58,513 bases of DNA, from NCBI GenBank assembly GCA_003518105.1, contig DOZH01000006.1, positions 1 to 58,513 of the forward strand. Reading direction: 5' to 3'. Below the pieces are notes generated by a model that saw only the letters and a list, made by a program, of their open reading frames with translations, was not told the origin of the DNA and did no database searches. Shown here piece after piece: positions 24,806 through 29,309 of this stretch. Position numbers and translations under genes: made by a program. The first letter of the stretch is position 1, and each line of letters starts with the position of its first letter. This DNA comes from Candidatus Uhrbacteria bacterium (GTDB taxonomy: Bacteria; Patescibacteriota; Patescibacteriia; UBA9934).

Positions 24806-25630
24806 CTACTTTTTAGCCCCATAAATATCTTGAATGATTTCTTCGAGCGAGGGCTCCACGGCGACCATTTTGACCGGGCGATGAGCGAAGTAATCCTTTT
24901 TGAGGGCGTCTGTGCTTTCGTCCACCACAATGCGGCCGTGGTTGACGACCATGGTGCGTGTGCAGAGGGCTTCGATGTCGCCGACGTCGTGACTGGTGAG
25001 GAAAAGCGTGACGCCTTCTTCGCGGTTAATGCGACCCAAGACTTCGCGGAGGGATTTTTTGGCGACGATATCGAGGCCGATGGTGGGTTCGTCGAGGAAG
25101 ATAATCTCCGGCTTGTGAATGAGGGCGACGGCGATTTCTGCCCGCATGCGTTGGCCGAGGGAGAGTTTACGGACGGGCCGGTCCACAAATTCGGCGAGAT
25201 CGAAGAGGCCAATGAGTTCTTTTTGGCGTCGACGGACGGTGGCAGGCGAGAGTTCGTAAATGGCGCCGAAGAGCTCGAAGCTGTCGCGGACGGGAAGATT
25301 CGGCACGAGCTGTGAGCGTTGGCCGAAGAGCGTGCCGATGCGGAAGGCTAGCTCGCGGCGGTTTTTGTAGGGATGCAGGCCAGCCACGGTCATGTCGCCA
25401 GAAGTGGGATAGAGAATGCCGGTGAGCATTTTAATGGTCGTCGACTTCCCCGCGCCGTTGGGGCCAATAAAAGCCACGGCCTGACCCTCGGGCACCGTAA
25501 AGCTGATGTCGTCCACGGCGGTGACAATCTCCTTTTCGGGCTTAAAGAAGTTGCGGAGTCTCCCCTGCTCGGGCTGGCGGACGGCGAGACTGAAGCTTTT
25601 GACGAGGTGGCTGACGGTGATGGCGGGCAT
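24806..25630 (-). CDS. ABC transporter ATP-binding protein
   Basis: GPNGAGKST, LSLGQRM, FLDEPTIGLD, LTSHD. Confidence 0.95.
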   Translation of the reverse strand: MPAITVSHLVKSFSLAVRQPEQGRLRNFFKPEKEIVTAVDDISFTVPEGQAVAFIGPNGAGKSTTIKMLTGILYPTSGDMTVAGLHPYKNRRELAFRIGTLFGQRSQLVPNLPVRDSFELFGAIYELSPATVRRRQKELIGLFDLAEFVDRPVRKLSLGQRMRAEIAVALIHKPEIIFLDEPTIGLDIVAKKSLREVLGRINREEGVTLFLTSHDVGDIEALCTRTMVVNHGRIVVDESTDALKKDYFAHRPVKMVAVEPSLEEIIQDIYGAKK

Positions 25631-25761
25631 ATTGGCTCTATTGTAGCACGAACGTCTTGCGCTTCGCTAAAGCCCCCTCTAGCTCCCTCATAGCTGGGAG
25701 AGGACTTACGAACTACGCCGAACTTAAAGGCTAATTTTAGCCAAATTTGCAGTTATTAACA

Positions 25762-25790
25762 TTGACAAAGTGGCGTTTTTATGGTATATT
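25762..25790 (+). promoter_or_regulatory. sigma70 promoter heading the cassette array
   Basis: TTGACA-17 bp-TATATT. Confidence 0.75.
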
Positions 25791-25864
25791 TCGCGGTCAT
25801 GAGCAACCGCTCCTCTGACGAAAAATCCACCTGAATTGGCCCGAAATGGGCTTTGGAGTTAAGA

Positions 25865-26134
25865 ATGAACATCTTCAGGAATATGGTCACGATGGCCCTC
25901 GTCGGCTTTCTTGTACCCGAGAGCGAGGTCGATCCTCAGCCGGACGAGAATGACCCCGAGCCGGATGACGACCGCTACGGGTCGGTTCCGGACATCGACA
26001 GATGCGACCAGATGCCGATCTTCAACTTCTACACTGCCTATTTCCCGATGTCGTCCTTCGACTTCGGTTACGGCCGTGAGGAATCGCGCGACTACTTGAC
26101 CTGGGCTGCAAGCTGCATCCCTCGCCCCCGGTGA
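25865..26134 (+). CDS. acidic hypothetical protein (array ORF1)
   Basis: GGAG Shine-Dalgarno; strong C/G third-position bias. Confidence 0.6.
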   Translation: MNIFRNMVTMALVGFLVPESEVDPQPDENDPEPDDDRYGSVPDIDRCDQMPIFNFYTAYFPMSSFDFGYGREESRDYLTWAASCIPRPR

Positions 26135-26153
26135 GCCGCCCCCGCTCACCACC

Positions 26154-26222
26154 TCCGGCAGTACACCTCGTGTGCTGCCGGACCCTTCATTGCTTGCGAG
26201 GTAACTCGTGGGCAGCGAAGGG
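26154..26222 (+). repeat. intergenic hairpin module M1
   Basis: TCCGGCAG...CTGCCGGA stem then CCCTTC...GAAGGG stem. Confidence 0.85.
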
Positions 26223-26281
26223 TGCAATTCTGCCCCGAAGTTTCTAGAGTCAACGTCAACCACTCCCAACAAGAGGCCATC

Positions 26282-26716
26282 ATGATCCCCTTCTCCCTCC
26301 TCACCATCCTCGCCTGTTCCGGCCGTAGCCCGGTGCATAACCTCAACCGGAGCGACGTCTTGCATATCGCCGACGACGCGCACGGTCAGTACATCTGGAC
26401 GGTGGCGAGCTTGACCGGCCACCCCATCGAGGCTGACAAGAGCCTGGAGATCGGCCTGGTTGGTCTGGGTACTGGCTACATGGTGCGCGGCGACAGGGTC
26501 GTGAATGGCGAGCACACGAGCAATCTCCCTGTCGTGGCCAGCTACCTGAACGCTGACTTCGAGCCGCAGAACTACTACAACCTGCAAGGCTGGAGCAAAT
26601 GCATCAACGCGAACAAGCCGCTGACCGGCGACTGCCTGGCCGAAGCCAACCAGTTTGTCGAGCTGGCCTTCGTCTCTTTCGGAGCGCGTCGCAGCAACGT
26701 CGACGCTGACAAGTAG
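26282..26716 (+). CDS. putative lipoprotein (array ORF2)
   Basis: MIPFSLLTILAC lipobox-like N-terminus; GAGG Shine-Dalgarno. Confidence 0.7.
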   Translation: MIPFSLLTILACSGRSPVHNLNRSDVLHIADDAHGQYIWTVASLTGHPIEADKSLEIGLVGLGTGYMVRGDRVVNGEHTSNLPVVASYLNADFEPQNYYNLQGWSKCINANKPLTGDCLAEANQFVELAFVSFGARRSNVDADK

Positions 26717-26734
26717 CCTGCCCCGCCTCCCCTC

Positions 26735-26838
26735 GGCTGGCACTCCCCTCACGGGTTTGAGTGCCGGCCACGCCACGTCGTCGAGAGATGACGTGGGCCC
26801 TTCATTCGGCATGAGATTGGCTCGTGCGTAGTGAAGGG
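26735..26838 (+). repeat. intergenic hairpin module M2
   Basis: GGCTGGCACTC/GAGTGCCGGCC, CCACGTCGTC/GATGACGTGG, CCCTTCA/TGAAGGG. Confidence 0.85.
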
Positions 26839-26883
26839 CGGAGTCATTCGCTCGATAATCAACCTACTGAAACGAGGTCAAAC

Positions 26884-27471
26884 ATGAAAGGATTGCGCAA
26901 CCCCAAAGTCATCCGCTTCTCCGGCTCGATCGCCGATGGCAGTGACTTCGAGAAGACAAGTGACTACATCTGTCGTCGCAAGGACGGCAACAGGCCACTC
27001 GCCGTCATTGGCAACTTGCTCAGCGACCGACTAGCCAAGCCGCCAGTGCTCGACATCCCAGTCGAGGCGGTGCTGGTAGAAGTGGGCGGCGACACCAGCC
27101 TGTGGGGCATGACCGAGCTCCACTCCTTCCACCAGTCACTCGGACTGCGCAACGCCACGGCAAGTGAGATGATCGACCTATTGCCAATCATCGACCGAGC
27201 TTTCGGCACAGATGACGAGGTCGAGATCATGGCTCTGACGTCGCGCTGGCACAACTTGACCGCCGCGCCAGGCGGTATGAGCGGTGGCATGGTACCGTGG
27301 ACGCCGATCGTCTGGCTGAAACAGGTCGTGGTCACCTTTGGCCAGTGGCACGGCGCCCTCAACGGCTGGCGTCATCCGCGCTTCGCTCTGGCCTTGCCGA
27401 CCAGCACGCCTCAACCAGGCTGCATCATAGCCGAACACCGCAACCACATGTCGTTGTTCAACTACTGCTAG
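26884..27471 (+). CDS. hypothetical protein (array ORF3), possibly CLec-like
   Basis: GAGG Shine-Dalgarno; LGLRNATASEM...IMALTSRW...VPW...W...RFALA pattern. Confidence 0.7.
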   Translation: MKGLRNPKVIRFSGSIADGSDFEKTSDYICRRKDGNRPLAVIGNLLSDRLAKPPVLDIPVEAVLVEVGGDTSLWGMTELHSFHQSLGLRNATASEMIDLLPIIDRAFGTDDEVEIMALTSRWHNLTAAPGGMSGGMVPWTPIVWLKQVVVTFGQWHGALNGWRHPRFALALPTSTPQPGCIIAEHRNHMSLFNYC

Positions 27472-27500
27472 GTTGATGACTCTTCTGTCCACGTCCCCCC

Positions 27501-27573
27501 GGCTAGCACTCCCCTCGTGGATCAAGTGTCAGGCCCTTCATTGCTTGCGAGTTAGCTCGTTGGCAGCGAAGGG
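27501..27573 (+). repeat. intergenic hairpin module M3
   Basis: CCCTTC...GAAGGG hairpin is 37/40 identical to that of M1. Confidence 0.85.
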
Positions 27574-27635
27574 CAGATCCTCTGCTCTACTTTCCCGCTA
27601 GTCAACATCAAACAACTAAATGAACAGGAGTCCAC

Positions 27636-28355
27636 ATGAACGACACGCGTCGAGAGATTGTCCACGTATCTTTCCTCAAGGAGTGGCTGGAGATTGCGCG
27701 CAAGATGCTCGGTCAGCCGATTGAGGTGCAAAAAGGCCTGGTGGCTAGGGCCCTCCGTCGCAACGACCACGCCGAGCGCCCGAGTGCGATCATCCGCGAA
27801 TTGACCGAGCAGCTCAAACACCACCACCTGATGGCTGAGCATCTCGGCAGCAGCGCCAAGGAGTTCGACAAGATCGCGCGTCAGGCTGACGTGGAGTACT
27901 TGCGGGCGGAGCTGGCGAAGGCCTACGAGTACGACGCCGAGGAACACGGTAGCAGCTGGCTGGCTGTAGTGCGCGGCCTGATGCAGCAGCTCGAGATCCG
28001 ACCCGAGGAGATCGGGACGACCAGGGACAAGCTGGACGCCGACGTGGCATCCGCACGGCTGACGCGTGACCGATACCTGCTCAAGCAGGCCCGGCAGATG
28101 CCCGACCCACGGACCTACGTGCGCCAGATCATCAGCCGGCCGGAGGCGCTTGGCTCCAGCGCCAAGGAGTTCGCACAGCTGAGCGAGATGACCAACGCCT
28201 GCTGGCACCTGAAGATGTTCCGCATTGCCCTGGGCCGCGGTCGCGAGATCGACGCCAAGAGCCACGCGCGGGTGCTGTTCGTTATCCTGATCGAGCATGA
28301 CGTCGACCCCGAGCGCATCGGTACGACCTACGAGGAGTTCGAGAAGTACGTCTAG
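27636..28355 (+). CDS. hypothetical protein with a two-fold internal repeat (array ORF4)
   Basis: LGSSAKEF twice and PEEIGTT/PERIGTT; AGGAG Shine-Dalgarno. Confidence 0.8.
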   Translation: MNDTRREIVHVSFLKEWLEIARKMLGQPIEVQKGLVARALRRNDHAERPSAIIRELTEQLKHHHLMAEHLGSSAKEFDKIARQADVEYLRAELAKAYEYDAEEHGSSWLAVVRGLMQQLEIRPEEIGTTRDKLDADVASARLTRDRYLLKQARQMPDPRTYVRQIISRPEALGSSAKEFAQLSEMTNACWHLKMFRIALGRGREIDAKSHARVLFVILIEHDVDPERIGTTYEEFEKYV

Positions 28356-28358
28356 ATT

Positions 28359-28480
28359 GGCCGGTAACTCCCCTCACTGGTTTGAGTGCTGGCCACGCCA
28401 CGTCGTTTAGCAATGACGTGGGCCCTTCCGCCTTGAGAAGACCTGAGAGTCTTGTCAGCGCAGAAGGGTTTTTGTTTTCT
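28359..28480 (+). repeat. intergenic hairpin module M4, ending in a U-tract
   Basis: Similar to M2; CCCTTC...GAAGGG followed by TTTTTGTTTTCT. Confidence 0.85.
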
Positions 28481-28535
28481 GAAAGTTCTATTTATTTTGC
28501 GTAGTGTGCTACGATAGGCGTAATAATTTTGATTT

Positions 28536-29240
28536 ATGTCGCTGATCCGTAAAGTACAATCGATAATCGAAAAACCAACCGCTGTTGGCTCGGCTGTGGA
28601 GTGCGCTTGTTGCGGACGAAAGAGTCGGCGGTTCTTGCCGGCGGGAGTTGAGAATAAGCGACCGTTTGCCAGGTGTGCGTGGTGCAGTAGTTTGGAGAGA
28701 CACAGACTAGTGGCGTTGATGCTCAAGAAGAATCCCTTACTGGCGAACTCGAGGATACTCGTGATTGCGCCGGAGATTCCCCTGCTCCGGATATTTAAGG
28801 ATGTGACTGGTGGCAAGGTGACGACGGCGGATTTGTTTATGGCTGGCGTCGACGTGCAAGCCGACATTTGTGCGTTGCCGTTTGCGGATGGTGAGTTCGA
28901 CGTAGTGGTTGCCAATCATGTGCTCGAGCATATTCCCGACGATAGACTCGCGATGAAGGAACTGCGACGCGTGACGAAGGCTGGTGGACGGGCGATATTG
29001 CAAACGCCGCTGTGCTGGGAGAATGAGGTGACGGATGAAGACGCGCAGGCCAACGAGGCGGAACGGGTGCGACGTTTTGGCCAGGCGGATCACGTGCGGT
29101 TGTATGGACGAGATTTTGTGACGAGGTTGCAAGCGGCTGGTTGGATTGTGACGGCGAAGGAGGTGAGTGCAATGTTTACCGCGGAGGAGATGGCGAGATA
29201 TGGGCTGGAGAGTGATGAGGTGTGGTGCGAGATTAGCTAA
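28536..29240 (+). CDS. class I SAM-dependent methyltransferase with N-terminal Cys motifs
   Basis: ADICALPFADGEFDVVVANHVLEHI; CACCG and CAWCSS. Confidence 0.88.
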   Translation: MSLIRKVQSIIEKPTAVGSAVECACCGRKSRRFLPAGVENKRPFARCAWCSSLERHRLVALMLKKNPLLANSRILVIAPEIPLLRIFKDVTGGKVTTADLFMAGVDVQADICALPFADGEFDVVVANHVLEHIPDDRLAMKELRRVTKAGGRAILQTPLCWENEVTDEDAQANEAERVRRFGQADHVRLYGRDFVTRLQAAGWIVTAKEVSAMFTAEEMARYGLESDEVWCEIS

Positions 29241-29258
29241 AAATAATCTGTCCACAAC

Positions 29259-29287
29259 TGGACAAAAGTGCTGTTTTGTGATATTGT
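29259..29287 (+). promoter_or_regulatory. sigma70-like promoter
   Basis: TGGACA-17 bp-TATTGT. Confidence 0.5.
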
Positions 29288-29309
29288 GTATAGTTACATA
29301 GAAGCAATA

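Follow-up and report, generated by a model that had tools for sequence, protein, structure and literature searches.

The stretch of DNA analysed here (the window; 58,513 nucleotides) is contig C6 of the 13-contig, 800-kb genome (~50% GC, 85% complete) of an ultra-small Candidatus Uhrbacteria bacterium from groundwater. It carries an array of four genes, and downstream of each open reading frame (ORF1 to ORF4) the sense strand has a composite module (M1 to M4) of one or two variable hairpins that abut a conserved 18-bp hairpin, H3. The array occupies a variable hotspot between an ABC transporter on one side and the secY–adk–map cluster on the other, and its genes have been replaced in close relatives that keep the same promoter and module family. 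On balance, we consider it probable that the modules serve as intercistronic RNA punctuation (that is, 3′-end protection or processing, and insulation) and that their copies also act as recombination substrates that drive a cassette-like turnover of the intervening genes.

A single-promoter array with a hairpin module after every gene

The features of the array are, in order of position:

25762–25790, + strand: sigma-70 promoter, TTGACA-17-TATATT, 11/12 consensus positions, TG extended −10
25838–25858, + strand: small leader hairpin, GGCCC-GAAAU-GGGCU, followed by the Shine–Dalgarno sequence GGAG
25865–26134, + strand: ORF1, 89 amino acids (aa), hydrophobic N terminus, no known family; stop codon inside hairpin H0
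26130–26239, + strand: module M1, with H0 (26130–26150), H1a (26154–26182), H3 (26183–26222) and a weak H4 (~26220–26239); 72.7 bits
26282–26716, + strand: ORF2, 144 aa, probable lipoprotein (LLTILAC); no homolog among 68 genomes of the same family
26735–26851, + strand: module M2, with H1b (26735–26769, loop CCCCUCACGGGUUUG), H2 (26773–26796), H3 (26798–26838) and H4 (26838–26851); 70.2 bits
26884–27471, + strand: ORF3, 195 aa, the sole cargo gene common to a congener (G003; 88% aa and 90% nucleotide identity)
27501–27585, + strand: module M3, with an imperfect H1b′ (27501–27535), H3 (27534–27573) and H4 (27573–27585); 70.3 bits
27636–28355, + strand: ORF4, 239 aa, all-alpha in a low-confidence AlphaFold model; no homolog among the 68 family genomes
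28359–28479, + strand: module M4, the operon terminator, with H1b (28359–28394), H2 (28398–28421), an H3 variant (28423–28468) and a U-tract (28469–28479)

As the original prediction (made from the letters of the window) had it, a near-consensus promoter precedes the four genes; it is the sole sigma-70-like site within 25500–28700, and neither internal promoters nor promoter remnants lie between the genes. Its spacer (AAGTGGCGTTTTTATGG) is kept in congeners and at a second locus of the same genome, and the leader hairpin is kept in two congeners (G003 and G001) with wobble changes read from the sequences. The promoter is a general feature of the lineage that stands outside the module system, because a pattern search of metagenomes recovered it at 12 loci and H3 was found at none of the 12.

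The four modules lie where they had been placed by that prediction and fold far more strongly than dinucleotide shuffles of the same sequence (z-scores of −6.4, −7.0, −2.6 and −5.4 for M1 to M4, respectively). The predicted identity of 37/40 positions between the H3 hairpins of M1 and M3 was reproduced, as was the compensatory change from C–G to U–A in the H2 stem shared by M2 and M4 (CCACGTCGTC/GATGACGTGG versus CCACGTCGTT/AATGACGTGG, read from the sequence); M2 and M4 are 90% identical across 62 nt. A U-tract (TTTTTGTTTT, 28469–28479) follows M4 only, again as predicted, and the 8 nt after H3 of M1 to M3 hold 1–3 U each. M4 (28423–28479) is accordingly an intrinsic (that is, Rho-independent) terminator, with a GC-rich hairpin directly followed by a U-tract, whereas M1 to M3 are not.

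Two details had to be amended. The CCTC-containing loop that had been attributed to every module does not describe M1, the first hairpin of which has a 3-nt CUC loop with CCUC spanning stem and loop, and a mismatch and a bulge interrupt the first stem of M3, where RNAfold favours another pairing. In addition, two hairpins had been overlooked: H0, which holds the stop codon of ORF1 in its 5′ arm (26130–26136), and H4, a small hairpin directly 3′ of H3 in M1 to M3, the 5′ arm of which overlaps the terminal Gs of H3 and the place of which is taken by the U-tract in M4. Downstream of H4, a CA-rich leader that lacks structure carries recurrent motifs (AGTCAACGTCAAC) and a Shine–Dalgarno site of the type GGAGTCAAC-ATG, and these Shine–Dalgarno regions stay open in the predicted folds. 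Masking of the Shine–Dalgarno sites by the CCUC (anti-Shine–Dalgarno-like) boxes was considered and rejected, as the predicted folds give it no support; the 3′ end of the 16S rRNA was not found in the assembly.

Across the window, G003 and G001, the variable hairpins H1 and H2 show compensatory changes (UCCGG/CCGGA versus UUCGG/CCGAA; CACU/AGUG versus CAUU/AAUG), to which a further pair set can be added (CCACGUCGU/AUGACGUGG versus CCCCGUAGU/ACUACGGGG); these were read by eye, and M2-type and M3-type H1b stems differ in register.

H3 is a covarying, sense-strand hairpin family

H3 has the consensus CCCUUC-A-UUG...CAG-C-GAAGGG and comprises 17–18 bp, with a conserved 1 × 1 mismatch six pairs above the base and the conserved flanking blocks UCAYUG and CAGCGA. 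A covariance model (R1), the first check that had been suggested for the modules, was built from nine H3+H4 copies and scanned against the 68 genomes of the same family. H3 was found in 13 of these, in 4 of 15 genera, and after genes other than those of the array; when 101 genomes belonging to the order were scanned, matches were confined to the same family. Scores of 68–73 bits were reached solely at the syntenic locus of three congeners, and weaker copies (18–41 bits) follow other small genes, including those of arrays on contigs C10 and C13 of the same genome and on contig C12 of G003 (G003:C12). In the genome itself R1 gives five sense-strand H3 hits (three in the window, one on C10 and one on C13), all in arrays, with M4 falling below the R1 threshold.

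Conservation of the structure is apparent from an alignment of 26 H3 copies from 13 genomes, in which 88.9% of cells are paired, 14 of the 18 pairs have changed on both sides, and the covariation score is 0.380 as compared with 0.192 for shuffled alignments (0/500 reach 0.380; slid pairing registers give ≤0.14). On the sense strand of these copies, G–U pairs are far more frequent than A–C pairs (58 versus 14), which suggests that the fold has been selected on that strand, as expected for RNA.

Every H3 copy for which the context was read lies shortly 3′ of the end of a same-strand ORF. Among ten core copies, the distance from stop codon to H3 is 45–81 nt in nine, and in the tenth (gene A of G001) the stop lies inside H3; the distance from H3 to the next start is 45–69 nt in all nine internal copies. 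The frame of gene A (L022:4798–5238) reads through H1 before it stops inside H3 (CTCGTGA), showing that cargo frames can enter the module. In M4 and in two further genomes (G077 and G078), the terminator consists of H3 and a U-tract behind it, and internal copies are without a U-tract. In these respects the modules are adjacent hairpins directly after stop codons, on the sense strand of accessory operons, with covariation and a restricted lineage distribution, and their sequence is distinct from that of a post-stop module on contig C3 of the same genome.

No Rfam family matched at gathering thresholds or, for the array, at E ≤ 1, BLAST against phage and plasmid collections showed no similarity, and literature searches found no published description of H3 modules. 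Candidates from a search for the pattern of the H3 ends were rejected: the single match in viral contigs is due to chance and falls within the coding sequence of a gene from one phage group, and the 44 matches in genome contigs are, beyond known Uhrbacteria contigs, chance or pattern-forced. Among the latter is a REP (repetitive extragenic palindromic)-like hairpin (CCCCTTCACTGYGTTCAG...CAGCGAAGGGG) that recurs in several Chloroflexi metagenome-assembled genomes (L055, L058, L074, L080 and L097), on three contigs of one of them; it came up solely because both ends were fixed in the search pattern.

Genes turn over while promoter and modules stay

In two genomes of the same genus (G003 and G001), this promoter and modules of this family are again found immediately 5′ of the same ATPase gene of the ABC transporter, the product of which is 99% (G003) and 95% (G001) identical to that of the window at the amino acid level. 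Gene order at the site is as follows:

Window: ORF1, ORF2, ORF3, ORF4
G003: O1′, X, O3′, Y
G001: A, B, C, D

In all-against-all BLASTP, the sole homologous pair among these twelve genes is ORF3 and O3′ (88% aa identity). A second suggested check, whether flanking genes shuffle between strains, is thereby answered in the affirmative: the scaffold is the same in G003 and G001, and one gene of four is common, between the window and G003 only. A further genome, G004 (L113, G004:C25:47500–53500, compared with window positions 25631–29290), has an empty site: its ATPase is 99% identical, yet neither the array nor the methyltransferase gene is present, and an RNHCP leader and gene come directly after the ATPase gene. 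Comparison of the array borders with this empty site revealed no direct repeats or att-like scars. In the more distant G005, map directly adjoins the transporter. Given the comparison of G003, G001, G004 and G005, the locus is best described as a hotspot with a lasting scaffold and a changing set of genes. Within the strain itself, the array is identical on seven other contigs, and independent gene callers returned the same four genes on them; samples with exactly this array include JGI 3300009031 and SRR5855242. In G003, a tRNA-Ser(tga)-like gene (L021:8178–8253) and a NUDIX gene, both absent from the window, separate the array terminator from the methyltransferase gene.

The modules are themselves mosaic. 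M1 of the window and module b of G001 (W_M1 and G1_b) are 97% identical before H3 and 80% within it; for M2 and M4, identity falls from 88% before H3 to 66% inside it, and M1 and M3 show the reverse pattern. By comparison, H3 copies inside one genome are 93–95% identical (M1/M3 in the window, m1/m2 in G003, b/c in G001). The parts of the module thus assort independently, breakpoints are frequent close to the H3 base, and H3 evolves in concert inside each genome (that is, by gene conversion among copies). The stretch from the ORF3 stop codon to H1 is identical at 32/33 positions between the window and G003, as compared with 83% identity at the four-fold degenerate sites of ORF3, which suggests purifying selection on the module.

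Cargo genes and related arrays

ORF1 to ORF4 are mutually unrelated in all-against-all BLASTP and have a GC content at third codon positions (GC3) of 0.79–0.85 (genome median 0.58, 95th percentile 0.776), in agreement with the original description of four unrelated high-GC3 ORFs; this high GC3 strongly indicates coding sequence and is at the same time unusual in composition. None of the four matched Pfam, PHROGs or PADLOC, and AlphaFold single-sequence models of ORF3 and ORF4 (predicted local distance difference test, pLDDT, of 36 and 48, respectively) were too poor for a fold search. ORF4 contains four internal repeats of ~50 aa (window 27843–28341; 147–168 nt spacing) with an LGSSAKEF... motif. 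Genome-wide, a GC3 of at least 0.78 is reached by 53 ORFs of 70 aa or more, which form a distinct compositional class of accessory genes, and those inspected (in the window array, C10 and C13) sit in hairpin-punctuated arrays.

On C10 (78000–83500; L017, L046), there is a string of mini-units, each of which has the same conserved promoter (CATTGACAAA..TTTTTATGGTATATT) and a high-GC3 lipoprotein or membrane-protein gene and ends in a conserved long-hairpin terminator (GTGCACCCGCAC...GCTGCTCGTGTCGGGTGCTTCTGTTTTT) that has six copies genome-wide; one junction there holds an H3-like hairpin (C10:81046–81124). On C13 (8000–11700; L049), several genes of a high-GC3 array are followed by a three-hairpin module (CCAGG..CCTGG; CTCGCGCGTATGCACATGCACGCGAG; and the H3-like GACTTTCACAGC..GCGAAAGC). 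A groundwater contig from Hainich (L103; 2257–3230 and 3777–4000) combines the same promoter with a single high-GC lipoprotein gene and a structured terminator at the end; this lipoprotein is 28% identical to gene C of G001, and an ORF resembling a REP-associated tyrosine transposase (RAYT) begins ~550 nt downstream.

The genome encodes four Y1_Tnp (RAYT-like) genes, two of which are flanked on both sides by perfect hairpins of their own (AGCTCCGGGAGGTG..CACCTCCGGGAGCTG in one case and AGGACGACGTCGAACGTCGTCCT in the other). Hairpin AGGACGACGTCGAACGTCGTCCT also follows the only tyrosine recombinase gene of the genome, in what looks like a REP–RAYT arrangement in a genome of the candidate phyla radiation (CPR). 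The loci concerned are C5:34046–34645, C3 ~105.3–106.1 kb (minus strand) and C3:67678–68607.

A proposed model and its alternatives

We propose that the four genes would be co-transcribed from the one promoter, with RNA polymerase passing M1 to M3 and stopping at M4; read-through at M1 to M3 is expected because no U-tract is present there. H3 can be envisioned as the stem of a terminator-type hairpin that would bring about termination when joined to a U-tract and allow read-through without one. In the resulting transcript, the stacked post-stop hairpins may shield the upstream cistron from 3′ exonucleases, the hairpin block may offer a processing site to a double-strand-specific nuclease of the RNase III type, and the same block may insulate the next open, CA-rich ribosome-binding region from upstream coding sequence, so that any ORF placed between modules could be expressed independently of its context. 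H3, of 17–18 bp with a conserved 1 × 1 mismatch, stacks directly on H1, and the genome has an rnc (RNase III) homolog at C9:36680–37309; a T7-type RNase III site would comprise about two turns of double-stranded RNA with an internal loop. At the DNA level, near-identical modules within and between arrays may provide portable homology, through which gene conversion would homogenize H3 in each genome and recombination at or beside the modules would swap the intervening genes. The outcome would be an integron-like turnover of cassettes without integron parts. The original prediction had offered an RNA processing or stability role as an alternative to an integron, and of the two it is the one that fits the evidence better.

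Several points weigh against this model. Breakpoints clustered at the base of H3 are not what plain homologous recombination would obviously give, and the 12–40-nt homology tracts are short for RecA-dependent exchange. G–T pairs also form in single-stranded DNA, so that a top-strand DNA hairpin is compatible with the strand bias, and the conserved H3 blocks and mismatch imply a specific reader (a protein or an RNase). Furthermore, read-through at M1 to M3, cleavage and stabilization are all steps that we infer.

An alternative that we regard as unlikely is a CPR-specific gene-cassette system, in which the modules would be recombination sites that an unlinked recombinase recognizes either in duplex form or as a folded single strand (candidates being the one tyrosine recombinase of Xer type and any of the four RAYT-like Y1/HUH proteins), with insertion and excision at the base of H3. 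Such a system would account for different genes between the same sites at one locus behind a fixed promoter in the congeners, for the empty site of G004, for the mosaic modules with breakpoints at the H1|H3 boundary (M2/M4 against the reverse pattern of M1/M3) and for an ORFan-rich cargo, as in chromosomal integrons; the four Y1_Tnp genes, two with flanking hairpins of their own, would fit as well. However, attC cores are absent, none of the three syntenic arrays contains or adjoins a recombinase gene, the borders show no direct repeats or att-like scars relative to the empty site, and the left breakpoints of replaced genes lie at varying distances after H3. The array is moreover identical on the seven contigs of the same strain, G–U pairs are in excess on the coding strand, and the last copy clearly serves to terminate transcription. 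The new family of recombination sites that had been suggested at the outset is a slim possibility, supported neither by a recombinase nor by a precise junction. A variant that joins both roles, and that we hold to be similarly doubtful, is that the H3 modules are junctions of an integrase-independent CPR gene-cassette platform, being RNA expression signals (3′ hairpin, insulator and terminator stem) and at the same time the DNA crossover point at which surface and accessory cassettes pass between arrays and strains; we propose that its catalyst could be an unlinked Xer-type or HUH (Y1) enzyme, or hairpin-stimulated template switching.

It also seems improbable that the modules represent repeats (of the REP/bacterial interspersed mosaic element (BIME), BOX or Correia type), whether selfish or neutral, that spread or persist in intergenic DNA and have incidental effects on RNA. 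Their modular build with an optional middle unit recalls BOX A-B-C and BIMEs, RAYT-like genes and other hairpin repeat families are present in the genome, and the distribution is patchy (13/68 family genomes, and none outside the family among the 101 order genomes scanned). On the other hand, copy number is low (five sense-strand H3 hits in the genome), and all copies are in sense orientation directly after stop codons in accessory arrays, with none found reversed or scattered. The stretch between the ORF3 stop and H1 is also more conserved than the four-fold sites of ORF3, and covariation indicates selection on the fold.

Decayed terminators are a further explanation, to which we give little credence: promoter–gene–terminator units would have fused into the array, and internal hairpins that lost their U-tracts would act only as partial attenuators and set a 5′-to-3′ expression gradient. 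This would agree with the numerous units, both in the genome and in metagenomes, that consist of this promoter, one gene and a structured terminator, and with H3 plus U-tract being the working terminator form. However, additional conserved parts (H4 and leader motifs) regularly replace the U-tract in internal modules, promoter remnants are absent between the genes, and the internal copies are conserved and covary at least as strongly as the terminal ones.

Implications

CPR bacteria are uncultured episymbionts, the host-interaction genes of which are largely unknown and fast-changing. If the proposed model is true, a foldable junction would explain how newly acquired orphan genes are reliably expressed in tiny genomes and how surface and accessory repertoires diversify without integrons. 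If the junction is itself a recombination site, it would represent a second, independent invention of the integron principle. The covariance model provides a practical handle for finding variable arrays of this kind, the cargo of which comprises candidate host-interaction proteins.

Comparison with known systems

The array resembles integron attC/cassette arrays (including clusters of attC sites lacking integron-integrases, CALINs) in having a fixed promoter, promoterless and mostly ORFan cassettes, a structured site after each, and a cassette content that differs between close relatives at one locus. The promoter–gene–site layout for which an integron-like array had been proposed stands, with promoterless cassettes behind a common promoter and a content that varies between relatives, whereas membership among integrons does not. 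A regular-expression search of both strands of 25700–28520 found no RYYYAAC...GTTRRRY (R″/R′) pairs and one isolated core, inside ORF3. In place of the single imperfect 57–141-nt bottom-strand hairpin of attC, with its extrahelical bases, the sites consist of two or three separate hairpins with a G–U bias on the top strand. With respect to intI, attI and Pc, the tyrosine recombinase domain PF00589 matches once in the 85%-complete genome, on contig C3, in a Xer-like protein (the IntI-specific extra domain was not examined), and no tyrosine recombinase lies beside the arrays in the window, G003 or G001. H3 arrays differ from integrons, then, in lacking R″/R′, a single bulged hairpin and IntI/attI, in folding on the coding strand, and in having an intrinsic terminator as the last site.

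Modular repeats provide a second comparison. Pneumococcal BOX elements (A-Bn-C), Escherichia coli BIME/REP and Neisseria Correia elements are modular with optional middle units, are co-transcribed, form stable folds and can alter mRNA stability, and Correia hairpins are cut by RNase III. Such elements occur in tens to hundreds of copies, in both orientations and genome-wide, whereas H3 copies are few, all in sense orientation and restricted to accessory arrays. The pairing of REP/BIME with a RAYT is likewise not seen for the five sense-strand H3 hits, as none of the four Y1_Tnp genes has H3 beside it, their flanks carrying other hairpins or none.

A third comparison is with intercistronic hairpins for RNase III processing or stabilization, such as those at R0.3–R1.3 of phage T7, in the Rhodobacter puf operon and in the REP of E. 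coli malE–malF. Like them, the H3 modules are strong sense-strand hairpins between co-transcribed genes that lack a U-tract, contain a mismatch or internal loop and directly follow the stop codon of the upstream gene; the upstream RNA is there left with a protective 3′ hairpin, as we predict for H3 modules. Unlike these hairpins, the H3 module is a multi-hairpin composite that comes after every gene, belongs to a lineage-specific family and doubles as a terminator stem; it also coincides with points of gene replacement, and its cleavage and stabilizing effect are predicted. Set beside these systems, the H3 modules are intercistronic structured elements with a cassette-like twist.

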